Notes: generated by a model not told the origin, from the sequence alone. A stretch of 64,000 bases of DNA from Candidatus Magasanikiibacteriota bacterium (GCA_903893485.1 CAITMK010000011.1:6636-70635), one strand, 5' to 3'; numbered from the stretch's first letter, positions 11,969 through 48,138 are shown. Numbers and translations: made by a program.

Positions 11969-11974
11969 AGGGGT

Positions 11975-12003
11975 TGACAAAACCCTAAAAACGTGCAATA
12001 CTA
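11975..12003 (+). promoter_or_regulatory. Sigma-70-like promoter of the GC-rich cassette
   Basis: TTGACA-17 nt-AATACT, followed by a strong SD GGGGGAGG 5 nt before the ATG at 12051. Confidence 0.5.
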
Positions 12004-12050
12004 GCATGTTCCTGGTGAAATCTATCCAACCACACCAGGGGGAGGCGAAC

Positions 12051-12317
12051 ATGATTCCGATCATTTGGGTACTAGTGTTGGGCGGAGCGGTCTCGTGTGG
12101 TATGTACTTGTACTTCGCCGTCACGTTCATTTCCATCGCGGCGACCCTTGGCTTCGTCAAGGATCATGTGGTGGCAACGATCGCCATCATCGCCGTGCTC
12201 ACCATCTTGGTGCGCGTGGTGGGCAACACGCGGACCTGCAAGCAGTATCCGCGGAACCTCGCGTGGCCAGCCGTCGTGGCTGTGCTCGCAACAATCGTCG
12301 CGCTGATTCATTTCTAG
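12051..12317 (+). CDS. Small hypothetical membrane protein (GC-rich cassette gene 1)
   Basis: 88 aa with three TM helices; strong SD; the G/C-rich codon third positions contrast with neighbouring genes. Confidence 0.45.
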   Translation: MIPIIWVLVLGGAVSCGMYLYFAVTFISIAATLGFVKDHVVATIAIIAVLTILVRVVGNTRTCKQYPRNLAWPAVVAVLATIVALIHF

Positions 12318-12334
12318 CGCAAAGGAGAGAGTCG

Positions 12335-12757
12335 ATGAACATGTTCATTTGTCTTGCGTTCTTGGTTGAGCTGATCCTGGGCTTTGTCTACGGCCCGATC
12401 AGCCACGATCTGGTGGAGGTCATCATAGCGTACATCACCGGTGGATGTGTGCTGATGCAGAGCCTCCACTACAGTCATCCGCAGTGCTTGGACGGGAATG
12501 TCCATCTGCGGCTGCCCACAAAAAATGAGTGGCTCGAGCTGGCACTGCTGACCACTCTCCAGGTGGTCTGGTGCCTAGTCATCTGGGAGCCGCGCATCCT
12601 TTACGCGATTGGCCTTTGCATCGCGGGAAAGTTTCTGGGAGGTCAGGCTCGCCAACGGCTGCGCAACACGCATGCCTACGGGAACCCGCTGATCGGCAAG
12701 GAGCTGGTCTGGTTCGAGAACTTGCAGGCGGCACGCAAGCGCCGGAAAGTTCTGTGA
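12335..12757 (+). CDS. Hypothetical membrane protein (GC-rich cassette gene 2)
   Basis: 140 aa with about four TM helices; SD AAAGGAGAG 6 nt upstream; followed by a terminator. Confidence 0.45.
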   Translation: MNMFICLAFLVELILGFVYGPISHDLVEVIIAYITGGCVLMQSLHYSHPQCLDGNVHLRLPTKNEWLELALLTTLQVVWCLVIWEPRILYAIGLCIAGKFLGGQARQRLRNTHAYGNPLIGKELVWFENLQAARKRRKVL

Positions 12758-12778
12758 CATCGGCGGGCGGCAACGAGT

Positions 12779-12840
12779 CGTGGCGTTTTGCGAGGAAGAC
12801 TTCCTCGCAGACGCCACGGCTGTTTTATTTTTACACAGGT
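12779..12840 (+). terminator. Rho-independent terminator of the GC-rich cassette
   Basis: CGTGGCGTTTTGCGAGGAAGacTTCCTCGCAGACGCCACG long hairpin followed by gctgttttattttt. Confidence 0.65.
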
Positions 12841-12924
12841 ACTTGCAAGATTTTTCAGATTCGAGTATAATTTTCGCGCTACGTAATGCGGATGAGCGCA
12901 AGTGCTTATCTCCAACCTTCGGTT

Positions 12925-12997
12925 GACCTGGTAGCTCAGTTGGTAGAGCAGTGGCCTTTTAAGCCAATGGTCGTGGGTTCGAATCCCACCCGGGTCA
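12925..12997 (+). tRNA. tRNA-Lys (anticodon TTT)
   Basis: GACCTGGTAGCTCAGTTGGTAGAGCA...GGCCTTTTAAGCC...GGTTCGAATCCCACCCGGGTCA: cloverleaf with a 7-bp acceptor stem, anticodon loop CTTTTAA and a TΨC arm. Confidence 0.85.
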
Positions 12998-13003
12998 TAC
13001 TAA

Positions 13004-13032
13004 AAAAACCACCTTCGGGTGGTTTTTTTAGT
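13004..13032. terminator. Hairpin terminator after tRNA-Lys
   Basis: aaaaaaACCACCttcgGGTGGTttttttt. Confidence 0.6.
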
Positions 13033-13135
13033 ATTATCAGAGTTGGGGATTCGAAGGGCACGCGCACATGCGAGCGTGCGCAGCATGTGTCGCGCGTGCC
13101 CCGGGACTGAGCGCGGGCATTAAGCCCGCGCGAAG

Positions 13136-13153
13136 CGAATCCCACCCGGGTCA
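13136..13153 (+). repeat. Direct repeat of the tRNA-Lys 3' end (att-like)
   Basis: CGAATCCCACCCGGGTCA is identical to tRNA positions 12980–12997 and lies 138 bp downstream of the tRNA. Confidence 0.7.
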
Positions 13154-13180
13154 CTCATTATGATATACTATAATTTCTGA

Positions 13181-14518
13181 ATGAAATTTATGCTTAGTTT
13201 TCTTCGAAAAATTACTCCACAACCCGTTTTCACACTCTACCATTATTTGCTCGCGGTTACGGGCGCGTTTCGTTATAACTATCCAACGCGGCGCATGATT
13301 ACCATTGGCGTGACCGGCACCAGCGGCAAGTCGTCAACGGTTTTTTTCTTGCACCGCATTTTACTGGCGGCGGGCCATATGCCGGGCAGTACCTCAACTA
13401 TTGAATTTTGCATTGGCGATTCGTGCACCATGAACAAAACAAAAATGACGCAGCTTGGCCGGTGGGGCACGCAGCGTTTTTTGGCGCGCATGTTAAAAGC
13501 GGGTTGCGATGTAGCAATTGTCGAAACAACATCGCAGGCAATCGAGCAATTTCGCCATCTGGGTGTGGCGTACGATGTGTGTTTGCTCACCAATTTATAT
13601 CCAGAGCATATCGAAGCACATGGCAGTTTTGAAAATTATAAAAATGCGAAGAAAAAATTATTCGGTTATTTGGCAACGCTAACGCGCAAACTTTTTGGCC
13701 CGCCAACAACGGCAATTGTTAACGGTACGGTCGCTGAGGCACCAGAATTTTTAGATTTTAAAATAGAACGCAAGTGGACCACGCAGGCCGCACTTCCAAA
13801 TACGGATCGCTCGTTTGTGCCAAGCAATATTCAAATCACGGGCACGGGCGTTTCGTTTGATTTGGATTTAGTTCATTTTGCAATTCCACTTTTGGGTGAT
13901 TATGTAGTAACCAACGCGGTTGCTGCAACTGCAGCGGCAGTTGCCATTGGTGTAACCGCACAGCAATGTGCTGATGCGTTATCTAAAATCGCGGGAATTC
14001 CAGGGCGTAATGAATCGGTGGATGCGGGCCAACCGTTTAAAGTGATTGTTGATTTTGCGTTTGAGCCAGTTGCCATGGAAAAATTATACGACGTGGTTAA
14101 AATGATTCCACACGGAAAAATAATTCACGTACTTGGCGGCACCGGTGGTGGACGCGACAAACGCCGTCGTCCAATTTTGGGCAACATGGCAGGTGAGCAG
14201 GCAAACGTAGTTGTGGTAACGAACGAAGATCCGTACGACGAAGATCCGCGTGTTATTATGCAAGCGGTTGCGGATGGTGCGCGCGCCGTGGGAAAAAAAG
14301 ACAACGAAGATTTATTTGTCATTGATGATCGCCGTGCAGCGATACATTTTGCATTGCAAAAAGCAGCGCCAGGCGATATAGTGTTAGTAACGGGAAAGGG
14401 TTCAGAGCAAGCGATGGTGCTTGCAAATCGAAATTTTGTGCCATGGGATGATCGCGCGGTGGTGCGCGAGGAATGGCACGCAATTGAAAAAGTGAAACAA
14501 CATGGCGGTACAAGATAA
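13181..14518 (+). CDS. Mur ligase family protein, MurE-like (UDP-MurNAc-dipeptide–diamino acid ligase)
   Basis: P-loop IGVTGTSGKSST; TNLYPEHIEAHGSFENYKNAKKKLF (Mur ligase central motif); LGGTGGGRDKRRRPILG and DDRRAAIHFAL...VLVTGKG C-terminal motifs. The N-terminal domain is short, so substrate assignment is uncertain. Confidence 0.7.
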   Translation: MKFMLSFLRKITPQPVFTLYHYLLAVTGAFRYNYPTRRMITIGVTGTSGKSSTVFFLHRILLAAGHMPGSTSTIEFCIGDSCTMNKTKMTQLGRWGTQRFLARMLKAGCDVAIVETTSQAIEQFRHLGVAYDVCLLTNLYPEHIEAHGSFENYKNAKKKLFGYLATLTRKLFGPPTTAIVNGTVAEAPEFLDFKIERKWTTQAALPNTDRSFVPSNIQITGTGVSFDLDLVHFAIPLLGDYVVTNAVAATAAAVAIGVTAQQCADALSKIAGIPGRNESVDAGQPFKVIVDFAFEPVAMEKLYDVVKMIPHGKIIHVLGGTGGGRDKRRRPILGNMAGEQANVVVVTNEDPYDEDPRVIMQAVADGARAVGKKDNEDLFVIDDRRAAIHFALQKAAPGDIVLVTGKGSEQAMVLANRNFVPWDDRAVVREEWHAIEKVKQHGGTR

Positions 14519-15053: not shown

Positions 15054-15438
15054 AATTATTATTGCGACATTGGGCTGCGCAGCAATCTGCGTGGTGCTTT
15101 TGGTTTCCTTTTTGCGTGTTTTTTTTAAAGACTACGAGTTGCGCCAAGAAATTGCACGCACACAAGTTGAGGTGGGTACATTGCAGAAAAGAAAAATTGA
15201 ATCATTGGAGTTGCTAAAGCGGTTACAAAGCGATACGTATGTTGAGGACCGCGCGCGTGAACAGCTCCAAGCAACGCGTCCTGGCGAAGAGGTGATTGTG
15301 GTCCCAGGACTTTCGGTTTCTTCGACTGCTGCGGCAACGGCAACCCCGGAACCTCTATCCACAGAAACAGAAGAACTTCCCAACTCGCTCAGTTGGTGGT
15401 ATTATTTCTTTCATTCATCCACCGAGCAATCAAATTAA
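15010..15438 (+). CDS. Septum formation initiator (FtsB/DivIC-like)
   Basis: Single TM, a coiled coil, then the conserved YVEDRAREQL...RPGE motif. The start was chosen at an internal Met; the ORF track allows 14932. Confidence 0.55.
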   Translation: MNIKKPMTLQSRPNKIIIATLGCAAICVVLLVSFLRVFFKDYELRQEIARTQVEVGTLQKRKIESLELLKRLQSDTYVEDRAREQLQATRPGEEVIVVPGLSVSSTAAATATPEPLSTETEELPNSLSWWYYFFHSSTEQSN

Positions 15439-15441
15439 AAT

Positions 15442-28412: not shown

Positions 28413-28513
28413 ACGGGCGGAATTATATTGACTTTTTTAAACAATTTTGCTAGTCTTTACCTGTCGGGAGAAAATCTGCTGACATAGTGCGCTGCGGCGC
28501 GAGGAGAACACCA

Positions 28514-29263
28514 ATGCTGCGTTTGAAATTTATAGTAAATGGAACAACCATTTCCACGACCTACGATCTGGTTATGGAGGATGGTGAAACCAACCTGGTG
28601 ATCCAAACCACCGAGGGTTTGGAGGTTGTTGAAACGGAAAATCAGACCTTTGCGCGGCTGGCGGAGTGTCTGGCATATCCGAAGATGCACCCGATTATTC
28701 GGCGGGCACTGGTGGCGAAGATTGAACTCGAAGGAGGCTTGAGCTTCTTGAGCCAGCTGAGTGATTTGCCACTCATGGTGGTTGGCCCTCAGATTGAGGG
28801 AAAAGATTTGCGTTCGGGCAACTTTATCCGGATAACCCCGGCGGTGCTCGAAGCCCATGTCGCCGAGAAAAAGGCTGCGACGAAGATCGAGTCGATTACG
28901 CAGGAACTCATCGCGAAGTATGGCATCGATCACGCGGATGCGCAGCGGATTGCGCGCGCCTCAACAAACGGTCAAATCGCGCTGCGTGTGATCGAAGCGT
29001 GCGAATATTCTTTTCAGCCGAAGCCGAATGATGTCCATTGGACAATTCGTCGTCGCACGCTTTTGTACATGGCCATGGCGGCAGCTGAAGAGAACTTTGA
29101 TACTGACCGCAGTCGTAGTGTAGAAATTGCGGCAGCCTTTGCGGCCCATCGCCTTCCTCTGCCACACATGCTCACGTCCGCCCAATTGCCGCACTTTTTC
29201 CGTGGCGTCTGCGCGGCGCTCGAAAGTCGGTATTTTGTTCAGAAGGTTCTCATTCCCGAGTAG
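28514..29263 (+). CDS. Hypothetical protein (GC-rich cassette)
   Basis: 249 aa ORF in a patch with clearly elevated G+C; SD GAGGAG 7 nt upstream of the ATG; upstream TTGACT promoter-like element; no recognised family. Confidence 0.45.
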   Translation: MLRLKFIVNGTTISTTYDLVMEDGETNLVIQTTEGLEVVETENQTFARLAECLAYPKMHPIIRRALVAKIELEGGLSFLSQLSDLPLMVVGPQIEGKDLRSGNFIRITPAVLEAHVAEKKAATKIESITQELIAKYGIDHADAQRIARASTNGQIALRVIEACEYSFQPKPNDVHWTIRRRTLLYMAMAAAEENFDTDRSRSVEIAAAFAAHRLPLPHMLTSAQLPHFFRGVCAALESRYFVQKVLIPE

Positions 29264-29334
29264 CGCATCGGGTCCGCAGATTCTGTCCCACTCCCTTGAT
29301 CGCATGTATTGGCTGATCGGGGGGTGGGCATTTT

Positions 29335-29736
29335 TTATTTTTTCGAATCCACACAATCAGTATACGTTGCGATATTTTTTTCCCAGAATGTCACACTCGA
29401 GCCTTTATTCCACAGCACTAACGAATCATCGGCGGTGGCATAGCGAGCTCCATCAGCAGAAATTGTTTGCGGTAAAGTAAAATCGCGACCATCGCTCAGG
29501 GATATTTTCGCTGAGCCAGTTGGGGTGGGCATCGCATCCTGACTCACAGGTGCGATTTGTGGTTGTTCATAAAATATAACGTGGACACTTTTGTTATCGG
29601 GGCATGCAAATGTAGCATCAGCCACGATCGTTTTTTTATCAGCAGGCGATAGAGCTGAAATCCGAAAACGCCAGAATACGATCAGGGTGGAGCCTACTAT
29701 TAAAAAAAGTACTAGCAATATCAAATATTTTTTCAT
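29335..29736 (-). CDS. MliC-family lipoprotein (membrane-bound lysozyme inhibitor of C-type lysozyme-like)
   Basis: Signal/TM MKKYLILLVLFLIVG; conserved SADGARYATADDSLVLWNKGSSVTFW resembles the MliC SGARY...W.KG core. Confidence 0.5.
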   Translation of the reverse strand: MKKYLILLVLFLIVGSTLIVFWRFRISALSPADKKTIVADATFACPDNKSVHVIFYEQPQIAPVSQDAMPTPTGSAKISLSDGRDFTLPQTISADGARYATADDSLVLWNKGSSVTFWEKNIATYTDCVDSKK

Positions 29737-29811
29737 GTATAAAGCATAGCACGTTGCATAATCATTATCCACACTTGACATTTTTGTAATATCTGTAACG
29801 CTGGATACATT

Positions 29812-35678: not shown

Positions 35679-35736
35679 ATATTGAAGGGAATTGCTTCGC
35701 GCGGGCTATATGCCTATGCTCGGTCGCGCAGCAGCC

Positions 35737-35757
35737 CTTCGATTCCCGTCAGCACAG
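35737..35757 (+). repeat. Partial copy of the tRNA-Glu 3' end (TΨC loop plus acceptor), inverted relative to the intact tRNA at 43110–43181
   Basis: TTCGATTCCCGTCAGCAC versus tRNA-Glu TTCGATTCCCGTTAGCAC (17/18 match); no complete cloverleaf can be folded around it. Confidence 0.6.
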
Positions 35758-35762
35758 CTGAT

Positions 35763-35800
35763 ATTTAAAAATATCCAGCGTTTGCTGGATATTTTTAAAT
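35763..35800 (+). terminator. Terminator-like hairpin
   Basis: aaaaATATCCAGCgtttGCTGGATATtttt. Confidence 0.6.
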
Positions 35801-35960
35801 AGCCCCGGGGACACTGCTAGCGAACTTTTTTATTCAAGCGGTGCGTGTCGAGCCTGAAATGCGGCAGTGGAGTGCTGACATCCGCAACTTTTTGAGTAAG
35901 GAAATACGGGAACCTAAATTTATGGTAACATACTAAAAAGCCATAAATAAAAAGAAAACT

Positions 35961-36143
35961 ATGTCATTACAACGAAAAGACGCATTGACCGACCTTATTC
36001 ATCACACGCCACGCGACAACGGACAAAATAACAAGCCACAAGGGCAAAGCCAACCTGCCGGAACAGTAATTGCGGCAGATGGTACATTAGTAACCCTTGG
36101 CTTAAATCAGAGTAAAAATTCGTCTGACACCTCTAATAAGTAA
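35961..36143 (+). CDS. Hypothetical small protein (low-complexity, Gln/Asn/Ser-rich)
   Basis: 60 aa ORF at the left edge of the AT-rich island; weak support. Confidence 0.2.
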   Translation: MSLQRKDALTDLIHHTPRDNGQNNKPQGQSQPAGTVIAADGTLVTLGLNQSKNSSDTSNK

Positions 36144-36169
36144 CACATGAACCTTAGTGGGTTAACAAT

Positions 36170-37432
36170 ATGCTGGGAAAAGATTTTGACGACATCGATT
36201 GTGATACCGTAAAAGCATTTTTAGAAAGTCAGGCTGACGAAACCCAAAAGATTGAGTTTAAAAGAGAAGCGTGGATTGATAAGCCTGATAAAGATGCCGA
36301 AAAAGGTGATGAAATGTTAAAGGATATTACAGGAATGGCTAACGCGTACGGCGGCTATATTTTACTTGGTGTGAAACAAAATAAAGAAAATGAGGTAATC
36401 ACTTATGAATTTTTTAATATTCCTGACCATGATAAAGAGATGGTGCGCATTAAGCAAAGATGCAACGCATGCATACAACCACGTCTTGATGGTTTTAAAA
36501 TAAAGAGTGTGGAGATGACAACGCTGGAAAAGGAAAGGGTGGTAATTCTGATTTTGAATGTTCCTCGGGGTATTAATGCGCCGCACGCAGCAAAAATGAC
36601 TGATATGCGCGCGGCCTATTGGTTTTGGCGTCGTTATGGTGACATTGTTTTGCCGATGCAGACATTTGATATACGAAAACAAATTATGGATACTTATTTT
36701 GGGACGGAGACTTTGGAGAAAAAATTTACTGATGCTTTTAATCATTTTAAAATCATTAATCATAGCGCGCCGCCATACATTTGGTTGGTCGCTAGTCCGG
36801 CAGATGTTTTGTCTAATAATCGAGTTGACATTAAAAATTCAGCAGTCAAACAAGCCTTTATAAATGAAAAAAGTGCATATACAACCAATCCTTTTCAATT
36901 CACTTTTAAATCTGAAGAATTAAAATATACGGTACGGGGTTTGTGCGCAGCAAGGTCGGGCTATAATATGGGTAAGCGTATAGAACTTCATAAGAGTGGT
37001 TTTCTTCAGGGTATTGGATTTTCTATTTTATCCGAAGAGCCGGGCGCATCAAGTAGACAGTTGTTATCTACATATCGGATTAGGTCGTTTATTTTGAGTT
37101 TTATTAGTCAGGTGTACACCTTATATCAAAATGCAAATATTCAGGGCGGTGTTGATTTTCAGGTTGCAATTGGACAAGCGCAGGGATGCAAACTTCCAAA
37201 TAGGGAGAAAGCACAATACGAAATTGGCATGGCTAGCACAATGATTGTAGAAAATTCATACGATGACACCGTACCACTTATATCTGAAATTATTCATATA
37301 GATGATTTTGACCGTAAACAAATTTTGTTGGTCGCTGACGATTTAGCTGAAAAGGTTTGGAATGGCTTTGGATTTGAAAAAGCAGCGCAATTTAGCCAAG
37401 AATATATTGACGATATAATGAGCCAAACATAG
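36170..37432 (+). CDS. AlbA_2/Schlafen-like putative nucleic-acid-binding domain protein with uncharacterised C-terminal domain
   Basis: The N-terminal roughly 140 aa carry the KIEFKRE...ITGMANAYGGYILLGV...VVILILNVPRG hallmark of the AlbA_2 (Schlafen-type) domain; the remaining roughly 280 aa are unrecognised. AT-rich codon usage. Confidence 0.55.
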   Translation: MLGKDFDDIDCDTVKAFLESQADETQKIEFKREAWIDKPDKDAEKGDEMLKDITGMANAYGGYILLGVKQNKENEVITYEFFNIPDHDKEMVRIKQRCNACIQPRLDGFKIKSVEMTTLEKERVVILILNVPRGINAPHAAKMTDMRAAYWFWRRYGDIVLPMQTFDIRKQIMDTYFGTETLEKKFTDAFNHFKIINHSAPPYIWLVASPADVLSNNRVDIKNSAVKQAFINEKSAYTTNPFQFTFKSEELKYTVRGLCAARSGYNMGKRIELHKSGFLQGIGFSILSEEPGASSRQLLSTYRIRSFILSFISQVYTLYQNANIQGGVDFQVAIGQAQGCKLPNREKAQYEIGMASTMIVENSYDDTVPLISEIIHIDDFDRKQILLVADDLAEKVWNGFGFEKAAQFSQEYIDDIMSQT

Positions 37433-37448
37433 CGCCAACAGGCTTTAT

Positions 37449-37862
37449 ATGACCTCTAATACTGTTAGTTTGGGTAGTTACGAAGAATCGTACAAATCTG
37501 ACACTTACGCTCAGTTTCAGGAACTCATAAGCACGCGTACAGCTTTGTGTACCCATAAGAACAGCTCAGTAGATAAAAACGAACGTGAGAGTACACGAAG
37601 AGCAAAAGACCGTCTCGTGGCAATTTATGGGCACTACGGTTACGTCAGTGTGAGTGTTGCGGTGCGGTATGCAGGAATAAGCCGAGACACCTACTACCGT
37701 TACTTACGTGAGGACGCAAATTTCGCGGCAAAAATTAATGAGGCGCAGGAATTTCTAAATGACTATGTGGAAGACCTATTGCTTAAAAAAATTGTGCGGG
37801 ACGAAAATATAGCTTGTATCAAGTTTTATTTATCCCACCGACACCCGGCTTACAGGAAGTAA
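37449..37862 (+). CDS. HTH-domain protein
   Basis: 137 aa; VSVAVRYAGISRDTYYRYLRE looks like a helix-turn-helix (resolvase/terminase-small-subunit style). Confidence 0.4.
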   Translation: MTSNTVSLGSYEESYKSDTYAQFQELISTRTALCTHKNSSVDKNERESTRRAKDRLVAIYGHYGYVSVSVAVRYAGISRDTYYRYLREDANFAAKINEAQEFLNDYVEDLLLKKIVRDENIACIKFYLSHRHPAYRK

Positions 37863-37866
37863 TATA

Positions 37867-38193
37867 TTAGGATTTGAGTAGCGAAACAATGATTTGAACG
37901 ATACCAACAAAAACAAGTGCGCCAGTCAAATAAGTCATTCGGTTTGCATATTTTTCATTACTCGCACTAAGCTCGGTGTTTGATTTGATACTTTTTTCGG
38001 CGCTTTCTCTAATTGTACCTCGCAGCTGCGCAACACTAAGAGGAATTTGAGTGCTGAGGAGTTGTATGGCTTTTGCAAGTTCCTCTGATTTTTCTCCAGT
38101 AAACAATGCTGCTGCTGCATTTACACTAACGTCGGCGGTGGAATGCGGATTATCTTTATATCGACTTAATAATTCGGTTGGGGTCATTGGCAT
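37867..38193 (-). CDS. Hypothetical C-terminally membrane-anchored protein
   Basis: MPMTPTELL...; C-terminal TM (LTGALVFVGIVQIIVSLL); the start lies 2 nt after the stop of the upstream gene. Confidence 0.35.
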   Translation of the reverse strand: MPMTPTELLSRYKDNPHSTADVSVNAAAALFTGEKSEELAKAIQLLSTQIPLSVAQLRGTIRESAEKSIKSNTELSASNEKYANRMTYLTGALVFVGIVQIIVSLLKS

Positions 38194-38195
38194 AG

Positions 38196-39245
38196 TTATT
38201 TGTTGCGCAGAAGAGCACGAAAAAGAGCCAAGATACCTGAAGCAAAAAAAGCAAAAGTAAAGTTGTATTGGATGATTGTAACAATCAAGGAAATCAACCA
38301 GAGGGCAAAGGAAATCACAATGAAGAGCCAAAACCACTGAATAACAAAAAGGAAAACGTTGAATTTGAAACCAGAAGAAGTTTCATTTATGACGTTATTT
38401 TTAAGGTTCGGTATATCCTCATTTTCGAGGTCGGCTATATCATCCTGTTTATTGATAGTAGGCTTTTTATTTAGAAAAAACTCAACACGTTCCAGCACCT
38501 CTTTACCAGACCTAAACTCATTATAAGATATGCCGACATATTTTTCGGATTTTTCTTCAAATAATTGCTCAAGAACTTTATTTAGGTGCTCTCTAGCACT
38601 TTCTAATTCCGCTTCAGACATCACATCCCGTTTTGTTTTCGGATACGAAATTATATCTAAATCTTCGGACTCGTCCATTATTTGTAAACCCGTTTCATCT
38701 GACTTGAGTGCCATTTCTACTTTGAGCGTCGCATCCTTTATTTTTTCTGATAACTGTCGTAAATATCGACGGTGGTCATTTGGAGTAATTATTTCAGGAT
38801 GCTTGGAAAGGATATACATTGAGACAGGGTTACCCGCCCAGCCCTCGTGCCACTCAACCTCTTTTTTGAGGCCGTCAATAAGCTCATCGGTCGAGGTAAT
38901 GAAATCAAGCCAATCTTTCCCCTCTCGTTCTTTGCGAATAGCTGACTCTAAAACGACCCCGTCTTTTACACTGTATCGTTCTGGTGGTTCGTGCTTTTGT
39001 TCAATGAGTCGCGTTTCTACCTTTATAGGATTAGTTTTTATACGGTATTCGAATTTGTCGGTGTAATAATCATATTCAAGACTCATCATTGATTGATAAG
39101 TCTTTGTTTCTGGGTATACGTCAAAAGTACAATCACCAAAGGTGAGTGTACCGTTGCCATCTTCTTCAAAAATTTCTATTTCCATAAAATTGGTATACCC
39201 ATAATAGGATACATACACTTTCCCATATTGAGACCTAAAAATCAA
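38196..39245 (-). CDS. Hypothetical protein with soluble N-terminal domain and two C-terminal TM helices
   Basis: 349 aa; acidic coiled N-terminal region; C-terminal FNVFLFVIQWFWLFIVISFALWLISLIVTII plus a second TM. Confidence 0.45.
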   Translation of the reverse strand: MIFRSQYGKVYVSYYGYTNFMEIEIFEEDGNGTLTFGDCTFDVYPETKTYQSMMSLEYDYYTDKFEYRIKTNPIKVETRLIEQKHEPPERYSVKDGVVLESAIRKEREGKDWLDFITSTDELIDGLKKEVEWHEGWAGNPVSMYILSKHPEIITPNDHRRYLRQLSEKIKDATLKVEMALKSDETGLQIMDESEDLDIISYPKTKRDVMSEAELESAREHLNKVLEQLFEEKSEKYVGISYNEFRSGKEVLERVEFFLNKKPTINKQDDIADLENEDIPNLKNNVINETSSGFKFNVFLFVIQWFWLFIVISFALWLISLIVTIIQYNFTFAFFASGILALFRALLRNK

Positions 39246-39250
39246 CTATA

Positions 39251-39868
39251 TTAGTGACATTGTGGACTTAAACTGCGGTTTGGGTACGCCTGCAATAGGT
39301 CTGTGAGCGAGCCAAAAGATTTAAGATATTTAGGACTTAAACTTCGCCACGCACTGCATGATGCTGGATAATACAGCTTGGCTGAGCCGTACGATGAAGT
39401 GTAATATGCCGGCGCTTCCTGCGTTGGTGGCGTGATTGGCAAAATGGTTGGTGCTGGTGCTTCATTTACCACAACCGGTGCTGTAGTTATTTGCGGCACA
39501 AACACTGGAGCTGCCAGCTCTGAATTTGTAGCAGCCTTAGTAGGCTTTGTTTGCGGTGATTTATAGTGAGTGAGCCAATCTGTCGAAATTTCTTTTTGCG
39601 CCTCGTCAATGGTCATTTTACCGGTGCAGACTTGTTTGTGTAGCTTGTTTTCAAAAACGTCTTTGACTCGTGACCCATTATTTATACCATACGCTTCAGG
39701 CCACAAATTTGAAATGTCATTACTGCCACCAAGTTCAAGACTGATGAGATGGTCAACTTCGTAATTGCTGCGGCGGCTGTATGGAATACCATATTCTGCG
39801 AATACCTGTTTTTTCTCGGTCGTGGTTACATTGCGCACCGTCTTTGTGTAACCGGTTTTACAAATCAC
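39251..39868 (-). CDS. Secreted HNH endonuclease (annotated from an internal GTG; in-frame signal-peptide-like sequence continues upstream to about 40033)
   Basis: HNH motif YEVDHLISLELGGSNDISNLWP; Pro/Thr-rich linker. Upstream in frame: KSSHFITPIAFALSLFIITPAFA|DYG (a signal peptide with an AFA cleavage site) but no ATG/GTG/TTG before it. Confidence 0.6.
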   Translation of the reverse strand: MICKTGYTKTVRNVTTTEKKQVFAEYGIPYSRRSNYEVDHLISLELGGSNDISNLWPEAYGINNGSRVKDVFENKLHKQVCTGKMTIDEAQKEISTDWLTHYKSPQTKPTKAATNSELAAPVFVPQITTAPVVVNEAPAPTILPITPPTQEAPAYYTSSYGSAKLYYPASCSAWRSLSPKYLKSFGSLTDLLQAYPNRSLSPQCH

Positions 39869-40097
39869 CGAAATGTCAGTGGTGAGAACTGCGCCCGGCG
39901 TACATGCAGGGTCTTGATATGCGGTGTTACCAACGCAACCAACTGTTTTGGTTTGTACGCCGTAATCAGCAAATGCAGGCGTAATAATGAATAACGAAAG
40001 CGCGAACGCGATGGGGGTAATGAAATGGGAGGATTTTATAGGGGTTTATTTTTAGGGAAAATATCACGAATTATTTTGCTGCTTGATTAGGCGTATT

Positions 40098-41153
40098 TTA
40101 CTGTAGCTCAACACTCGTGCCATCCCAGTCACTCCAACGACCTGTTGCGACTGTTCTGATGCCGTTGCTTATGTTGACCTGAACACTCGAATTTGGATAA
40201 TTTTGCTTCAGTGATTTCACGAGGCTGGTTACAAAATCTTTTTTAGTCGTATCGGTCGCATATGCCCATGAAATATTAGTTACGTCTGCAGCCAAGGTTG
40301 CTGCGGTAACTTTCCCTCGATAGTCACTTTCATCGCCACCTGCAGCGTAGTCTTTCTCAGCATCATCTGGTGCTTGAAGATTAACAGCACCATCGAAACC
40401 GACTGATTTATAAAGTGTAATGAAGGTTGTCGCGGTTTGTGCGGCCATGGAGTTGTTACCAAGGTTCGTATCAAATTTCTGACGCTGCGAAATCGTCGCC
40501 TGAAGCGCTTGTGGTGAGATAATGAATGCGCCGGTAAATTTACTCGCATCGTTAATTTCTGGAACGAATTTGACGCGGTAGTCAGCACCAGCGATGTTGA
40601 AATTGCCCGCAATACCTAGAACACTTTTATCTGCTACAGCGTCAGTTGATGTTATAAAGAAGTTTTTTACTGCTAGTGTTTTATAGTCGTACGTGACGTC
40701 AAGCGATATATCACCATTCTGATACGTTTCGTCCCATTCGTAATTGGCTGCTTGCAGTTCTGATTTACTTGGTGTTGCAGCATCTTTTGGTTTACCGCCA
40801 AGTGCAGCGCGAATTTGTGTGATGTTTTTTCCAAATAACGATGGAATATCAAATGATGGTTTTGGCTGCGGTGGCACTTCTGCAACAGCCTGCTGTACAT
40901 CTGGCTTATTTTCTGGCGCAGCGGCTGGTATGGAAGTTGTCAGCTGATTTTGATTTGTAGCTGCAACGGTCGCCGGTTTTGGAGGCGCTGGAGGTGCAGT
41001 GGCAGCAACACCAAAAAAGCCAACGATAAATGTAATACCGCAGACCATAAGAACACGTTTGCGGGATGGAAGTTTAATCCGTGCCGGATTGATTAAGCCT
41101 ACGATGCCTACAACAATAGAGCCGAGTAAAATGATGACAAAAATGCCTGACAT
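40098..41153 (-). CDS. Hypothetical membrane-anchored protein with Pro-rich linker
   Basis: Two N-terminal TMs, APPAPPKPATVAAT linker and a roughly 250 aa extracytoplasmic domain. Confidence 0.45.
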   Translation of the reverse strand: MSGIFVIILLGSIVVGIVGLINPARIKLPSRKRVLMVCGITFIVGFFGVAATAPPAPPKPATVAATNQNQLTTSIPAAAPENKPDVQQAVAEVPPQPKPSFDIPSLFGKNITQIRAALGGKPKDAATPSKSELQAANYEWDETYQNGDISLDVTYDYKTLAVKNFFITSTDAVADKSVLGIAGNFNIAGADYRVKFVPEINDASKFTGAFIISPQALQATISQRQKFDTNLGNNSMAAQTATTFITLYKSVGFDGAVNLQAPDDAEKDYAAGGDESDYRGKVTAATLAADVTNISWAYATDTTKKDFVTSLVKSLKQNYPNSSVQVNISNGIRTVATGRWSDWDGTSVELQ

Positions 41154-41458
41154 ATTTTTATACAACTGGGTATTTTGCAATATGCCACGATGGATTTTGC
41201 ATTATACAATTTGAATAAAACCGGATTGTCTTAAATAAAAAAAGCGACACCCGGGGTGTCGAAGCCCAACTTAAGCACAGGTCGTGCTGAGGTTGTTTTA
41301 CCGGGCGCCGCTTTCATCGCGCGACCTGGAAAAATAGCCAAATGGCCTACTTAAGTTGAACTTCGACCAAAACAATATAGCTTAAAATTTTGACTAAGTA
41401 AAGCCGTAGTAACTTTTGCGGCAATGAGGTAAAATTAATGATACATAATGCATAAAAT

Positions 41459-43147
41459 ATGGCAGAAGATGACAAAAGCGTTTCAAACCTAGTTGCTCGT
41501 CTCAAGAACACAATTGGTGTTGAAAAACAGGCCGAACAAGACCTTGAAAACATGCGTTATGTTGCTTATGTTCGTAAAAGCACTGACGATGGCGTCCACC
41601 AGCTTCGTTCAATTGGCGACCAAATCAAAGAATGCAGAGATTTGGCGATAAGAATAGGTGTCGGAAGAGTACCTATTGTACCCGAAGAACAATCGGCTAA
41701 AATTTCCGATAAACGTCCTAAATTTCGGCAAATGCTGAACGATATCGTCGATGGTAAATATGATGGGATTATTGCTTGGGCTCCTGACCGTCTAGCGCGC
41801 AATATGAAAGAAGGTGGTGAAATCATCGACCTGCTTGACCGTGGCGTAATCAAAGACATTAAGTTCGCTAACAATTATATGTTTAGCAACGACCCATCAG
41901 GTAAAATGTTGCTCGGCATTGCGTTTGTAATGGCAAAACAGTATTCAGACCAACATGGGCAAAATGTGAAACGTGGCTTTGACCACCTAACAGAAGACGG
42001 AAAGTGTGGTGGTGCAGCAAAGCATGGATACTACAAAGACCAGCATAAGTTTTTACAACCAGATGGTGAGAATTGGACGCTTATTAAGCGGGCGTTTGAA
42101 ATGCGTTTAGATAAAAAAAGCCTTAAAGAAATTTCAGAGTTTTTAGAGGAGGCTGGATACCCGCTGCAAACGAAACACAGTAAACGTACCTCAATAAATG
42201 TAAATGTAAAATTTGTATCCGACATGTTTCGTGACCCATTTTATGCTGGTGCAATGGTTCGAGGCGACAAAATTATTGAATTGTCAAAAAAATATAAATT
42301 CACGCCAATTATTACATCAGAACAGTTTGATGAGATGACAACCTTAGATAAGATTAGTAAAACATTTCGCCTGACTGAGGCAATCAAAGAGAGAGGGTCA
42401 GTAAGGGCAGATTTGATGCGTAAGATGATTATTTGCGCACACTGCAAGCGCTTCATGTCGGCGAGTATAAATGAAAAGCACACAACACTTAAAAGTGGTG
42501 AACGGCGCGAGATAAACTATCTTAGATATAGGTGCGATACCGGAGGTTGTAAAAGAAAAGGGAAAACGGTTAGAGCAAAGATTATCTGTGACGCGGCGTT
42601 TGAATTTCTTAAAACGCACCCAATGAACATAAATGAGGGTTATGAAGCCTATGCGCGTGAAATGGAACGACAAGCGGTACTTCAAGGCACGGACGTCGCA
42701 ACGCGACTGCAATCACTTAAGCAGCGCCGCGTGGTTATCATCAATCGTAAGAGCATTGCAAGGCAGGATATGGAGGAATATGCGCCTGACCCTCTGATGC
42801 GCAAAGAGTTTGCAAGTGAATTTCGAAATCAGACACAACTGCTAAAAGACATTGATAAACTCATTGATGAGACTGAGCAAGAAAAAGAGGGTAAAAAATC
42901 AGCAAATAAGAGCCTCATGGAATTCATCGAACTATTCAATAATTTGACTAAGGTTATACAAAATTATAAGCACATGGAGGACTTGGATTATGTGATGAAA
43001 AAAGTGTTCTCGAACTTTGAAACTGATGGTAAAAAAGTGACTAAGATAACACAAAACTCCCCTTTCAGGGAGCTGTGTGAGCCAGTTAAGGCTGTAAATT
43101 GTACTAATATAGTGCTAACGGGAATCGAACCCGTCTTCTTAGATTGA
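41459..43147 (+). CDS. Large serine recombinase (phage-integrase-type)
   Basis: N-terminal resolvase catalytic domain YVAYVRKSTDDGV...SIGDQ (nucleophilic Ser), recombinase domain, zinc-ribbon CAHCKRF...YLRYRCDTGGC and a coiled-coil tail. The last about 12 codons are the reverse complement of the tRNA-Glu TΨC arm. Confidence 0.85.
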   Translation: MAEDDKSVSNLVARLKNTIGVEKQAEQDLENMRYVAYVRKSTDDGVHQLRSIGDQIKECRDLAIRIGVGRVPIVPEEQSAKISDKRPKFRQMLNDIVDGKYDGIIAWAPDRLARNMKEGGEIIDLLDRGVIKDIKFANNYMFSNDPSGKMLLGIAFVMAKQYSDQHGQNVKRGFDHLTEDGKCGGAAKHGYYKDQHKFLQPDGENWTLIKRAFEMRLDKKSLKEISEFLEEAGYPLQTKHSKRTSINVNVKFVSDMFRDPFYAGAMVRGDKIIELSKKYKFTPIITSEQFDEMTTLDKISKTFRLTEAIKERGSVRADLMRKMIICAHCKRFMSASINEKHTTLKSGERREINYLRYRCDTGGCKRKGKTVRAKIICDAAFEFLKTHPMNINEGYEAYAREMERQAVLQGTDVATRLQSLKQRRVVIINRKSIARQDMEEYAPDPLMRKEFASEFRNQTQLLKDIDKLIDETEQEKEGKKSANKSLMEFIELFNNLTKVIQNYKHMEDLDYVMKKVFSNFETDGKKVTKITQNSPFRELCEPVKAVNCTNIVLTGIEPVFLD

Positions 43148-43181: not shown

Positions 43182-43362
43182 AAGTGAGGAGCAACGTCCA
43201 CGCTTGCGTGGACGGTTGTTCCGAACGCCGGTGCGCGCTTTCGCAAAGCGAAAGCCTAGCAGCCAGCCGAATATCGCTGGCATCATTCTATCAATTCCCA
43301 CCAAAAATTTCAAGATGTACCAAAAAAGCATTATGTCCGTATTGCTTATGTAATTTTTATTT

Positions 43363-43839
43363 ATGAAAAAATCATCATCAGTTTTTCTTGCACTTAGTGC
43401 AGCATTGTTAGTCATGGGAGGTGCGGGTTGTGCATCTGCTACCGACGATCAGCCAGCGGTTGCGCCGGCTCCACAACAAATCGAAAAGCAAGCTCCAGCG
43501 CCAGCAGCTGTGGCACCAGTTGCAACATCCACTGAGGCAGTTCCTGCGGCTGCAGTTGATAAAACAGTAAAGGAATTTTCAATCACCGGTAAAAATTGGG
43601 AATGGGATCCAAATACGATTACCGTGAAAAAAGGTGACAAAGTTCATCTCAAACTTACTGGCATGGATGAAACACATGGGTTTGCAATTCGCGAATATGG
43701 AATTAATGTAAATATGCCAGAAGGCACCACACAGACCGTTGATTTTGTGGCAGACAAAGCGGGTACATTTGAATTCCGTTGTTCAGTGCCATGCGGCTCT
43801 GGTCATCGTGAAATGGTTGGTAAACTTATTGTTCAGTAA
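43363..43839 (+). CDS. Lipoprotein with CuA-type cupredoxin domain (cytochrome oxidase subunit II-like copper site)
   Basis: Signal plus lipobox (GAGC); copper ligands in COX2-like spacing: H...(35 aa)...CSVPCGSGHREM, i.e. C-x3-C-x3-H-x2-M. Confidence 0.55.
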   Translation: MKKSSSVFLALSAALLVMGGAGCASATDDQPAVAPAPQQIEKQAPAPAAVAPVATSTEAVPAAAVDKTVKEFSITGKNWEWDPNTITVKKGDKVHLKLTGMDETHGFAIREYGINVNMPEGTTQTVDFVADKAGTFEFRCSVPCGSGHREMVGKLIVQ

Positions 43840-43848: not shown

Positions 43849-43880
43849 TAAAACCGTCGGGCTTAGGTTCGACGGTTTTA
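43849..43880 (+). terminator. Rho-independent terminator
   Basis: AAACCGTCGggcttaggttCGACGGTTTTAt. Confidence 0.6.
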
Positions 43881-43929
43881 TAATTGACAAAAACCAAAAA
43901 ATGCGCTACTGTTTTTGTGGAGGTGAATC

Positions 43930-44742: not shown

Positions 44743-44889
44743 GCCAGGAAAAGCGGCAAACAGCGCGGAATTCTCCAGGAGGGGAGGTTCCGCGCTCATT
44801 TTTTATTTAGCCTCAGCCTTAAAACTTGATTTAATTCGGCTTCTGTGATACACTTTTGCAATCTGAAAAACCGCTAAACGCCTCAAAAT

Positions 44890-46692
44890 ATGGATATTCG
44901 AAACATCGCGATCATCGCGCACGTTGACCACGGCAAAACCACGCTCGTGGATGCTTTGCTAAAACTTACTCATACCAAAATTGGTAACGAACGTCCAATG
45001 GAACGCGTGATGGACAACAACGATTTGGAACGTGAACGCGGTATTACTATTTTCTCTAAAAATGCATCCATTCATTACGGAGACACCAAAATTAATATTA
45101 TCGACACCCCAGGCCACGCTGACTTTGGTGGTGAAGTTGAACGTGTTTTGAAAATGGCTGATGGCGCACTTTTGCTCGTTGATGCAAAAGAAGGTCCAAT
45201 GCCACAGACTAAATTCGTTTTGAAAAAAGCAATTAACTTGGGGCTCCGCGTTATTGTGGTTATCAACAAAATCGATAAGAAAGATGCACGTTGCGAATAT
45301 GTGCTCAACACAACCTTTGATTTGTTTGGCGCACTTGGTGCAAGCGATCGCCAGCTCGACTTCCCAGTTATTTACGCTGCAGCAATTGCGGGCAAGGCTG
45401 GCTACGAAGACAACTTGGAAGCAATGACCGATATCACTCCAATTCTTGATACCGTAATTAAGGAAGTTCCACCACCAACCGGTGATGCAGAAGCGCCACT
45501 CCAAATGCTTGTGGTTTCACTTCGCATGGACAACTATAAGGGTAAGCTCGCGATTGGCCGTATCTTTAATGGCCGTGTGAAAAAAGGCGACACCATTATG
45601 CACATCAATCGCGATGGTAAAATGACCAAGCAAAAAGTTACCGCGCTCATGGCGTTCGAAGGTTTGGAAACAACTGAAATCGAGCACGCACAGGCTGGTG
45701 ACATTATTTTGCTCGCTGGTATCCCAGATGTTTCAATTGGTGACACCGTTGCAGATGCAACAAACCCAATTGCACTCGACATGCTCGACATCGAACAGCC
45801 AACCGTGAAAATGACATTCCGCGTGAATGACTCACCATTTAACGGCAAACAGGCTGGTACCAAAAATACTTCACGCCTTCTTCGTGAACGTTTGGACAAG
45901 GAACTTGAAACAGACGTTGCACTTCGCGTCGAGCAGGGCGACAGTGCTGACAACTTTATTGTGTCAGGCCGTGGTGAATTGCACCTTGCAATTTTGATCG
46001 AAAAAATGCGTCGTGAAGGTTTTGAATTGCAGGTTACCCGTCCACAGGTGGTTACGCACATGGAAAATGGTGTTGAAATGGAACCAGCTGAAGATGTATA
46101 CGTTGAAGTTCCAGAAACATATGCAGGTACCGTTATCGAAAAGCTTGGTAAACGCCGTGGTGAAATGAAAAACTACGCTGTGCAGGAAGGCCACGCGCAG
46201 GTGCATTTCCTTATCCCAACTCGTGGGCTTATTGGCTACCGTAATGAATTCATGACCGACACCAAGGGTACCGGTATCTTGAACTCACTTTTTAATGGAT
46301 TCATTCCATGGGTACAGAACTTGTCAACAAGCAATCACAGTTCACTTATTGCGTACGAATCTGGTGTTACCACCGGTTACGCGCTTGAATCAGCGGGTGA
46401 ACGCGGTCAATTGTTTGTGGGTCCAGCAACAGAAGTTTATGCTGGTCAAGTTGTTGGTCAGAATGCTAAAGACGAAGATCTTGAAGTTAATGTGTGTAAG
46501 GAAAAACGTTTGTCTAACATGCGTTCATCTGGCGCGGACATGGCAGTTAAATTGGAACCACATCGCACACTCACCCTTGAAGAAGCTATTGAATATATTA
46601 GCGACGATGAATGGGTAGAAATTGTTCCAAGCGAAATTCGTATTCGTAAGCAGTGGTTAAGTCCGAATGATCGTAAGAAAAACGGAAGATAA
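44890..46692 (+). CDS. typA: Translational GTPase TypA/BipA
   Basis: IRNIAIIAHVDHGKTTLVDALL (G1), DTPGHADFGGEVER (G3), NKIDK (G4), EF-G-like domains; 600 aa. Confidence 0.9.
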   Translation: MDIRNIAIIAHVDHGKTTLVDALLKLTHTKIGNERPMERVMDNNDLERERGITIFSKNASIHYGDTKINIIDTPGHADFGGEVERVLKMADGALLLVDAKEGPMPQTKFVLKKAINLGLRVIVVINKIDKKDARCEYVLNTTFDLFGALGASDRQLDFPVIYAAAIAGKAGYEDNLEAMTDITPILDTVIKEVPPPTGDAEAPLQMLVVSLRMDNYKGKLAIGRIFNGRVKKGDTIMHINRDGKMTKQKVTALMAFEGLETTEIEHAQAGDIILLAGIPDVSIGDTVADATNPIALDMLDIEQPTVKMTFRVNDSPFNGKQAGTKNTSRLLRERLDKELETDVALRVEQGDSADNFIVSGRGELHLAILIEKMRREGFELQVTRPQVVTHMENGVEMEPAEDVYVEVPETYAGTVIEKLGKRRGEMKNYAVQEGHAQVHFLIPTRGLIGYRNEFMTDTKGTGILNSLFNGFIPWVQNLSTSNHSSLIAYESGVTTGYALESAGERGQLFVGPATEVYAGQVVGQNAKDEDLEVNVCKEKRLSNMRSSGADMAVKLEPHRTLTLEEAIEYISDDEWVEIVPSEIRIRKQWLSPNDRKKNGR

Positions 46693-46791
46693 TTTCTTGT
46701 TTTCTTTCTTAAGAGTTTGCTCACAACTCCCGCCTTTGGCGGGAGTTCGCTTTTATTGGTTTAGATCTCTTAAGAAAGAAAACAAGAAATT
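46691..46791. repeat. Nested perfect inverted repeat (25-bp arms) enclosing a terminator-like hairpin
   Basis: AATTTCTTGTTTTCTTTCTTAAGAG (46691–46715) is exactly complementary to CTCTTAAGAAAGAAAACAAGAAATT (46767–46791); the inner hairpin AACTCCCGCCtttgGCGGGAGTT is followed by cgcttttatt. Confidence 0.7.
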
Positions 46792-46876
46792 ATTTCGTAT
46801 TTACGACATTCTTATTGACCTGACTGACCTTACGTGGTAACCTTGGCACGGATTTACGATTGCCTCAGGAGGGCAA

Positions 46877-47392
46877 ATGAGCACACTTGAAAGCGTCATG
46901 GAATTGCTGAGCAGGCATACCTTCAGTGTTGAGCACAACCCGAATTGTCCATCACCATACCTCGTTCGTCTGGTGGGCTTTCAGCGGGGTGGGCTGGACA
47001 AATTTGAGCCCAACGCAACTAATGACTACATGGGCTACGGCAAGACTCTCGTCGAGGCGGCGGATGCAGCATTTAGCGCAAAGACGGCATTCGATACATT
47101 CGTCGCAAATTCACGCTGCCCGGTTTGTACGGAAAAGCCAAAGCGACTTTGGTTTGAGGGTCGGGTGCGCAAGGTCTGCAAAAAATGTCAGGCCGCACAG
47201 CCTGACCTCACGGTCGCGCATCACAATTTCTCGTGCAAGAGCTGCGGTAACTGGTACTTGTATCACGATAGCACGCTGTATTGGTACGGGTTATATCACG
47301 ATGGCGTGGTGTCCAAGGGCGCTGATCGGCGTCCGCCAGGCATGAAATCAGTTGCCGAACTGACCTCGCCGCTGAGGCATTTTCTTCCATGA
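46877..47392 (+). CDS. Hypothetical zinc-ribbon protein (GC-rich cassette)
   Basis: CPVC...CKKC and CKSC Cys pairs; SD AGGAGGG; upstream TTGACC-17-TAACCT; downstream terminator. Confidence 0.4.
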   Translation: MSTLESVMELLSRHTFSVEHNPNCPSPYLVRLVGFQRGGLDKFEPNATNDYMGYGKTLVEAADAAFSAKTAFDTFVANSRCPVCTEKPKRLWFEGRVRKVCKKCQAAQPDLTVAHHNFSCKSCGNWYLYHDSTLYWYGLYHDGVVSKGADRRPPGMKSVAELTSPLRHFLP

Positions 47393-47527
47393 GCGCAACA
47401 CACCCAATTCTTTATCGCACAACAAGCGATCAGAAGCGGGTGTTTTTTTAAATAAAAAAATCCACCAGGAATCGCTTGGCACTGGAAAGTGCGTCGCGAT
47501 TCAAGGTGGGGAAAACAGGCAATCGAG

Positions 47528-47911
47528 TTACGCGGGCTGTTGCGTGCCGCGGCGGCGTTTGAGCTCTTCGTTGGCCGTGTGGAAATCCGCGCGTACATAC
47601 TCCATGTACGTGTGCGCTGGCGCTCCCGTAACGGTCGGGGTGAAGTCTTGACCCGTAATGAGACGCAGCATGTGGACCGTTGCAAAAAACGCACCGCCCT
47701 CTTCATCGGCCGGGCAGTAGAAGCCCAAATGATGAGTGCTATTGCGGCTAAAGTCCACAACAGTCTCGTTGAAGCTAAGGCCATCGGGTGCGAGCTCGAA
47801 GATGTGCAGTCCGATCATCGTGCCGGACATGAGACCGACGGCGTTGACACGCGCCAGCGATTCCAGCGTTGCGGGGATGATCTTTTTCTTTTCTGGGGTG
47901 TGAATGGTCAC
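47528..47911 (-). CDS. Hypothetical protein (GC-rich cassette; GTG start)
   Basis: 127 aa; minus-strand promoter TTGACT-17-TAGTTT and SD AAGAGG before the GTG; convergent with the ORF at 46877. Confidence 0.35.
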   Translation of the reverse strand: MTIHTPEKKKIIPATLESLARVNAVGLMSGTMIGLHIFELAPDGLSFNETVVDFSRNSTHHLGFYCPADEEGGAFFATVHMLRLITGQDFTPTVTGAPAHTYMEYVRADFHTANEELKRRRGTQQPA

Positions 47912-48138
47912 GGGGAGCCTCTTTTGGTAGCGGTTTTTTGCTACATATGAGCAAACTATCACGAACTGCGTAAAAAGTCAAGATTGTAAAGCAAATTCAA
48001 ACTGATATTTTTTTGTGATTTGAGAAACAAAAAAAGTTTGCAGACTCATTGGTTTTTTCTTCCTGAGAGACTGAACCCGCTGACAGCGAACGCGCGCCAA
48101 GAGCGCGCATCGTGAGCCTGTCTCTCGGGGAGGAAAAA

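Follow-up and report, generated by a model that had tools for sequence, protein, structure and literature searches.

We examined a 64,000-nucleotide stretch of DNA from Candidatus Magasanikiibacteriota bacterium (GCA_903893485.1 CAITMK010000011.1:6636-70635), called here, at its whole length, the window, in which four short patches, cassettes 1 to 4, hold six small genes of unusual composition. The mean GC (G+C fraction) of the window is 0.457. Its BipA (44890-46692), MraY, and neighboring genes match metagenome-assembled genomes (MAGs) of Magasanikbacteria. BipA is 86%, 85%, and 69% identical to the copies at three MAG loci (L006, L007, and L008, of which L006 and L008 are labeled Candidatus Magasanikbacteria/Magasanikiibacteriota and L007 "uncultured Gammaproteobacteria"), and 83% and 91% identical to those at two further loci (L086 and L175). 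Gene order around BipA is common to the window and these relatives, and this, with the BipA identities, identifies the window as a chromosomal stretch of a bacterium of the Candidate Phyla Radiation (CPR/Patescibacteria). Genomes in this group are tiny, and its members are believed to rely on partner organisms. The cassettes occupy gaps whose flanks are kept in relatives: murG/tRNA-Lys (cassette 1), tRNA-Gln/SNase (cassette 2), and tRNA-Glu/BipA/tsaE (cassette 3 before BipA, cassette 4 after it). Their genes and predicted signals are listed below (GC3, G+C at third codon positions; SD, Shine–Dalgarno site; TM, transmembrane; dG, folding free energy; z of a hairpin, score against shuffled sequences).

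11974..12002, + strand: cassette 1 promoter-like site, TTGACA-17-AATACT, 10/12 consensus matches
12051..12317, + strand: c1a, 88-aa multi-TM protein, GC3 0.79, GGAGG SD 6 nt upstream
12335..12757, + strand: c1b, 140-aa multi-TM protein, GC3 0.76, AGGAG SD
12772..12835, + strand: cassette 1 predicted terminator, long hairpin and U-run, dG -38.3, z = -4.0
28428..28456, + strand: cassette 2 promoter-like site, TTGACT-17-TAGTCT, from the pattern scan
28514..29263, + strand: c2, 249-aa soluble orphan protein, GC3 0.60
29284..29343, + strand: cassette 2 predicted terminator, bidirectional, common with the convergent MliC gene, from hairpins compared with shuffles
43884..43912, + strand: cassette 3 promoter-like site, TTGACA-17-TACTGT, conserved in L086
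43930..44742, + strand: c3, 270-aa transglutaminase-fold protein, putative Cys196/His232/Asp248, GC3 0.64
44762..44808, + strand: cassette 3 predicted terminator, its sequence conserved in L086
46815..46843, + strand: c4a promoter-like site, TTGACC-17-TAACCT, from the pattern scan
46877..47392, + strand: c4a, 171-aa protein, small N-terminal domain and C-terminal CxxC zinc ribbons, GC3 0.61
47400..47450, + strand: c4a predicted terminator, z = -4.4
47452..47509, - strand: c4b predicted terminator, convergent with that of c4a, z = -4.7
47528..47911, - strand: c4b, 127-aa soluble orphan, GTG start, AAGAGG SD, GC3 0.70
47953..47981, - strand: c4b promoter-like site, TTGACT-17-TAGTTT, from the pattern scan

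An earlier annotation of this stretch, made without database searches (the sequence-only reading), had picked out the patches for higher G+C and G/C-ending codons, and the counts bear this out. Sliding GC peaks at 0.56–0.60 at 12.0–12.8 kb, 0.55 at 28.6–29.2 kb, 0.56–0.58 at 44.0–44.8 kb, and 0.52–0.54 at 46.8–48.0 kb. Native genes also show raw-GC peaks of 0.52–0.56 (11.4–11.8, 19.4–19.8, and 34.2–34.8 kb), and GC3 is therefore the discriminating measure. On that measure the six cassette genes (0.60–0.79) lie 3.9 to 7.7 standard deviations above the 59 other open reading frames (ORFs) (0.411±0.049, maximum 0.491). Cassette 1 is the most extreme (0.76–0.79), and codon choice in the cassettes moves to CTG, GCG, GTC/GTG, and CGG. 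The GC-normalized tetranucleotide signature of the pooled cassettes correlates with the rest of the window at r = 0.716, below all of 200 size-matched native sets (0.886±0.035, minimum 0.728). Against a Myxococcota locus, the correlation is 0.687 for the cassettes and 0.304 for the rest of the window. One alternative to a foreign origin holds that these are native, fast-evolving genes in which biased gene conversion, or selection acting on codons or mRNA, keeps the codons GC-rich. The tetranucleotide departure, which goes beyond GC, argues against it, as does BipA, a strongly conserved and presumably well-expressed gene that has no such bias.

Each unit had also been credited with a promoter, an SD, and a terminator of its own, and all of these are present by sequence match. 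The pattern TTGACN-N17-TANNNT occurs just five times on the two strands of the 64 kb. Four of the occurrences are the candidate cassette promoters (28428, 43884, 46815, and, on the minus strand, 47981), and the remaining one lies ahead of a tRNA-Gly gene. The promoter-like site of cassette 1 (TTGACA-17-AATACT at 11974) falls outside the pattern; the cassette −10 boxes are weak, and this site alone passes a consensus scan. The likeness reported between the two TTGACA promoters is real, the spacers of the 11974 and 43884 sites being identical at 13 of 17 positions (counted by eye). A GGAGG-like SD can be read before all six genes, and a stable hairpin with a U-run closes all five units (z = -3.0 to -4.7 against shuffles); no sequence is common to these 3' hairpins. 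The descriptions of the genes also stand: c1a and c1b are predicted multi-TM proteins, c3 has a transglutaminase fold, and c4b is a 127-aa protein on the minus strand.

What does not stand is the promoter as a special mark of the cassettes. Promoters of the TTGACA-17-TAnnnT type are shared by native genes and by genes in the corresponding gaps of relatives (the native SNase gene of L086 has TTGACA-17-TACTTT), and the layout of a self-contained unit is the general organization of single genes in these genomes. We also considered and rejected the idea that the promoter belongs to the gap rather than to the gene, as the promoters of such genes across genomes are unrelated beyond the consensus hexamers.

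The abrupt change in composition at the patches might reflect GC-richer contaminant fragments stitched into the contig during assembly or binning, and several public contigs do end near cassette 1 (about 13010–13040). These ends, however, coincide with an exact 18-nt repeat of the tRNA-Lys 3' end, and the borders of the patches are predicted promoters and terminators. In at least five other assemblies, contigs span the murG–c1–tRNA-Lys, FtsX–tRNA-Gln–c2–MliC–SNase, and cupredoxin–c3–BipA junctions with 100% identity, and the gene tables of two further contigs give BipA–c4a–c4b–tsaE. Another MAG has a c3 orthologue in a matching context. The recurrence of the junctions in independent assemblies thus answers the concern about chimerism raised in the sequence-only reading, and we regard an artefact as extremely improbable.

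Contigs of the same species are identical over the cassettes, the only single-nucleotide differences lying in BipA, where one contig ends. There (L001 2840-2967; window 46032-46152), 14 differences, of which 13 are synonymous, cluster in the final 120 nt, inside BipA, and point to a second strain, either through recombination or through assembly across the two. Two contigs, each from a different further sample (L001 1-122 and L002 1-123), agree perfectly with the window rightward of 43312, exactly the left border of a cupredoxin insertion. To the left of that point, a 5'-truncated rmlD-like fragment (ISTDYVFDGF…) replaces the tRNA-Glu promoter and the contigs diverge further out, reflecting either a strain-level rearrangement or short-contig chimeras.

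Comparison with relatives gives a different history for each gap. For cassette 1, a metagenome scan with a MurG query found no relative of the locus and one with a MraY query found a single informative locus, L113, in which murG and tRNA-Lys are separated by a 490-bp spacer with no c1 homologue. Cassette 1 had been said to split a cell-wall gene neighborhood. It does lie between murG and the Mur-ligase gene, and these are already parted by tRNA-Lys at L113. Its two genes are probably co-transcribed. In independent assemblies c1a is annotated as an 88-aa gene, which forms a singleton cluster; a fused 235-aa gene in contig L089 proved to be an artefact of a run of N. Downstream of the tRNA, and enclosing not cassette 1 but a 156-bp non-coding block, the 18-nt direct repeat of the tRNA-Lys 3' end (CGAATCCCACCCGGGTCA) occurs at 12980-12997 and 13136-13153. 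Between the repeats are a terminator hairpin and a very stable GC-rich block of ~100 nt (dG -88.6, z = -8.2). The arrangement at 12980-13153 resembles a T-arm/acceptor fragment split by an insertion and has no match to an Rfam family; it could be the att-like scar of an excised element, or an uncharacterized RNA.

At the second gap, tRNA-Gln directly adjoins SNase in L006 and L175. In the window, c2 and a convergent low-GC gene for an MliC-type lysozyme inhibitor (29335-29781, minus strand, GC3 0.37), whose terminator-like hairpin is that of c2, are inserted between them; both are missing in L006 and L175. At the fourth, BipA and tsaE are adjacent in L007 and L086, where cassette 4 is absent, and unrelated genes of 419 and 341 aa occupy the same place in L006 and L008. 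The c4b reading on the minus strand is better than an Arg-rich plus-strand ORF given in some public annotations. Two structures flank this region. At 46683-46793, a perfect 25-bp inverted repeat (AATTTCTTGTTTTCTTTCTTAAGAG and its complement) encloses the BipA terminator hairpin in a 100-nt structure (dG -47.9, z = -9.1), which was not found after BipA in L086. At 48020-48140 (minus strand), directly past tsaE, a long GC-rich hairpin is followed by a U-run (dG -43.0). It resembles the GC-rich blocks beside tRNA-Lys and tRNA-Glu, and these may form a family of structured intergenic elements.

The third gap is filled in every relative that we could compare. Where the window has c3, L006, L007, and L008 have 2-oxoglutarate (2OG)-Fe(II) oxygenases, an M48 peptidase, an OMP decarboxylase, and a phosphoribosyltransferase. 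Several such genes of relatives (SNase, 2OG oxygenases, M48 peptidase, and others) are GC-richer than their own genomes and have TTGAC promoters of their own. A common ancestral cluster of a 2OG oxygenase and c3 was not supported as the source of these contents, the match being a generic family match of just 30%. The gaps are empty or otherwise filled in relatives and are therefore variable slots across the lineage. Absence from relatives, proposed as a check on recent arrival, thus obtains for cassette 2 (L006 and L175), cassette 4 (L007 and L086), and cassette 1 (L113 alone), and fails for c3, of which both L086 and L175 have a copy.

The c3 protein has a papain-like/transglutaminase core fold with a putative catalytic triad in Cys-His-Asp order. 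C196, at the start of the helix 196–212, occurs in 90% or more of 36 family members, and H232 (in the strand 230–238) and D248 (at the end of the strand 244–248) are invariant. No Pfam or NCBIfam model, Transglut_core included, matches at E <= 1, and a profile search of PDB sequences returned nothing relevant. Compared with the transglutaminase-like cysteine protease/transferase superfamily, c3 has in addition a family-specific N-terminal half of ~190 residues; it is a putative cysteine protease or transferase. There are 40 homologues, and those with a named source are mostly from Myxococcota, Deltaproteobacteria, or Myxococcales MAGs. One such copy (GC3 0.84, locus GC 0.67) has the composition of its own neighbors. 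In a rough midpoint-rooted neighbor-joining tree, the Magasanikbacteria copies and one copy on a short contig form a subtree of the family. On one short contig (L176, from SRR24750911, 2462 bp), a c3 homologue of GC3 0.74 sits among genes of GC3 0.86, 0.45, and 0.85, a strongly mosaic arrangement.

Only three members of the family are placed in Magasanikbacteria, and all three lie in the tRNA-Glu/BipA slot. The L086 orthologue (55% identity) is immediately beside tRNA-Glu and shares with the window copy its TTGACA-17-TACTGT promoter, its SD, and, nearly unchanged, its terminator; the L175 copy is more divergent (38% identity). In the window, a low-GC cupredoxin gene (43363-43839, plus strand, GC3 0.29) stands between tRNA-Glu and c3. 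The statement that cassettes 1 to 3 abut tRNA genes is therefore inexact for c3 in the window and true of its orthologues in relatives. The cupredoxin gene itself is lipoprotein-like and lineage-specific, with a terminator-like hairpin of its own; neither it nor the MliC gene has a homologue in the compared loci of relatives. At 4-fold sites of identical residues, the three pairwise comparisons of c3 among window, L086, and L175 give an excess identity of 0.04, -0.05, and 0.06 (±0.09), compared with 0.18–0.27 for core genes. With orthologues in the same slot and 4-fold sites saturated, c3 therefore dates back at least to the split between these genomes. The acquisitions had been called recent, and conservation in relatives had been named as evidence to the contrary; such conservation was found for c3 only, and for c3 the word must be dropped.

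Searches with the six proteins gave mixed returns on the question of donors. None has a significant match in Pfam, NCBIfam, PHROGs, or PADLOC, and c1a, c1b, c4a, and c4b have essentially no close relatives in their own 90%-identity clusters. IMG/VR holds no close relative of the five proteins searched, with the exception of the N-terminal domain of c4a, and GenBank phages and plasmids (queried with c2, c4a, and c4b) gave nothing beyond that same domain; searches of viral, phage, and plasmid sequences yielded no relative of c4b. The c4a domain (65 residues, with the motifs …VEHNPNCPSPYLVRL…GYGKTL…) shares 46% identity with an ORF on an IMG/VR phage contig, and 41%–45% with hypothetical proteins of Bosea megaplasmids. 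Matches of c4a to Cas12f/TnpB were discounted, as they are weak and cover just the generic CxxC ribbon. Like c2 and c4b, c4a is predicted to be soluble. The proposed search for a donor lineage gave hints for c3 (named sources mostly Myxococcota) and for the c4a domain (phage and Bosea), and no homologue for c2, a strict orphan.

The sequence-only reading had taken the cassettes for recent, self-contained mobile or moron-like units, delivered from a higher-GC host or partner and targeted to tRNA genes. Much of what we found could be read this way: each unit comes with candidate promoter, SD, and terminator, its composition is strongly atypical (most so in cassette 1), and cassettes 2 and 4 are absent in relatives. 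The promoter and terminator of c3 are conserved along with the gene between window and L086, as if the whole unit had been inherited or transferred. Three of the four units are now, or were ancestrally, beside a tRNA gene (rough p ~0.01–0.1 under random intergenic placement), and a Myxococcota homologue of c3 occurs in the same sample series. That homologue, however, is only 38% identical, c3 is old, and native genes use such promoters too. No direct repeats flank any cassette, none contains an integrase or recombinase, and there are no second copies in the window; mobility is therefore unsupported. Cassettes 1 and 3 lie 5' of their tRNAs, not at the 3' end where tRNA-targeting integrases act. 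The flanks are syntenic chromosomal core genes (murG, tRNA-Lys, FtsX, tRNA-Gln, SNase, BipA, and tsaE) with no prophage among them. No close relatives were found in IMG/VR (five of the six proteins) or GenBank phages (three searched), and PHROGs gave no significant match for any of the six. We consider this explanation unlikely.

A different element does lie nearby. In the low-GC island at ~35.7–43.1 kb (35700-43147, GC 0.35–0.43), several orphan genes accompany those for a Schlafen/AlbA_2-domain protein, a nuclease-like protein, and a large serine recombinase of 562 aa. The recombinase gene (41459-43147) and the 3' end of tRNA-Glu overlap by 39 nt. L086 and L175 lack the island, which is probably an integrated mobile element; c3 lies across tRNA-Glu and is not part of it. 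On the minus strand at 43183-43285, a structured GC-rich leader of ~100 nt separates the tRNA-Glu gene from its promoter (43313..43285). Its counterpart in L086 (9812-9900) has hairpins apparently kept by compensatory changes, a similar block occurs in L006 (8546-8625), and there is none in L175 or L007. This block may be an unusually long tRNA 5' leader or a small RNA.

We conclude that the four patches are probably horizontally acquired accessory genes, drawn from GC-richer pools, of different ages, in a Magasanikbacteria chromosome. The claim of a foreign, GC-richer origin is upheld by the atypical codon and tetranucleotide signatures, by the absence of cassettes 2 and 4 at the same positions in relatives, by the c3 family, which elsewhere is mostly of Myxococcota/Deltaproteobacteria, and by the occurrence of the c4a N-terminal domain in a phage contig and Bosea megaplasmids. 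Incoming DNA from such pools would have settled in permissive intergenic gaps at operon boundaries, by tRNA genes or between conserved genes, most likely by illegitimate recombination or by homology-assisted recombination between conserved flanks, a route that we infer. Each arrival would be a one- or two-gene unit with an ordinary sigma-70-type promoter and an intrinsic terminator. The events would be separate, with c3 entering before the split from at least two other Magasanikbacteria and staying in the tRNA-Glu/BipA slot. The units would have no machinery of their own and would represent neither one event nor one element.

Several results weigh against this conclusion. The function of the promoters and terminators is a prediction from motif and hairpin matches, and few relatives were compared, a single one (L113) for the cassette 1 slot. 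No donor was found for c1, c2, or c4b, and the case for their foreign origin therefore consists only of their composition and of their not being found in relatives. In a set of 5.8 billion clustered proteins, c2 has no homologue but itself; a HMMER pass over 1.84 billion representatives gave itself and one weak match (~40 residues, E = 3.5e-4), and a structure predicted without an alignment was unusable (pLDDT 45.5). Nor are genes without homologues across six Magasanikbacteria loci GC-richer as a class than shared genes (p = 0.31). Their distribution is bimodal, part of them being far richer and part poorer, without an overall shift, which rules out the idea that accessory genes are generally GC-richer in this lineage and makes GC-rich sources only one of several. 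The window itself holds low-GC additions (the cupredoxin gene, the MliC gene, and the recombinase island) along with the GC-rich cassettes.

The most awkward result concerns c3, whose GC4 (G+C at 4-fold sites) is still 0.58–0.79 in the three genomes despite saturation, compared with 0.40–0.43 in core genes. Under a simple one-rate model, we infer that passive decay from one ancestral c3 would require an ancestral GC4 of at least 1.0 for the window copy. Simple passive amelioration does not fit c3, and something further must contribute: either its GC-rich codons have been maintained, or the gene was replaced at a later time by one from a GC-rich pool. The GC4 values favor native genes with actively kept codons, as does the tRNA-Glu/BipA slot, which holds GC-richer genes in six of six genomes examined. 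Against this stand the small number (three) of c3 members placed in Magasanikbacteria, the match of the single non-CPR copy examined to its own GC-rich neighbors, and the absence of cassettes 2 and 4 from relatives. A native origin for the patches seems to us quite improbable, somewhat more so than mobile units. A related and tentative suggestion, of doubtful standing as yet, is that the tRNA-Glu/BipA gap, and perhaps other gaps, acts as a long-lived "expression slot" in which GC-rich foreign genes are repeatedly captured or replaced through the conserved flanks, or else that c3 is held GC-rich far from the genome equilibrium. Either would explain how GC4 can remain so high at saturated sites.

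If the patches are indeed acquired from GC-richer pools, they would show that additions to such genomes can be very small, fully equipped transcription units at operon boundaries, from GC-rich and GC-poor sources alike. Acquired CPR genes hint at needs met from outside, and the long-kept c3, with the orphan proteins, is a candidate for interaction functions. Understanding of gene transfer is otherwise unchanged by these cassettes, which are a case of ordinary horizontal gene acquisition and not a new class of mobile element.

Set beside known systems, the cassettes share features with several. A phage moron is a promoter-gene-terminator unit of atypical composition placed between phage genes. 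The units here are similarly autonomous by consensus match and atypical, and leave their neighbors undisrupted; they differ in not lying inside a prophage, and the sole phage relative is the 65-residue domain of c4a. As in tRNA-linked integrative islands, foreign DNA sits beside tRNA genes, but the cassettes lack an integrase, there is no tRNA 3'-end repeat at the far border (checked for cassettes 2, 3, and 4), and cassettes 1 and 3 are on the 5' side of the tRNA. Integron cassettes are promoterless ORFs with an attC site, next to intI/attI, whereas the units here have promoter-like sites of their own, dissimilar 3' hairpins with U-runs, and neither a tyrosine recombinase nor a repeat family in common. 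Transfer of islands and of single genes is already on record for groundwater Patescibacteria (PMC12455944; mSystems 2025). As there, the genes are atypical, lineage-specific accessory genes between conserved ones, many of them hypothetical, often not recent, and often from unsampled donors. The units described here are set apart from those transfers by their very small size (0.8–1.1 kb), by being GC-richer than the genome, by clear predicted expression signals, and, in the case of c3, by retention in the same slot across three genomes.

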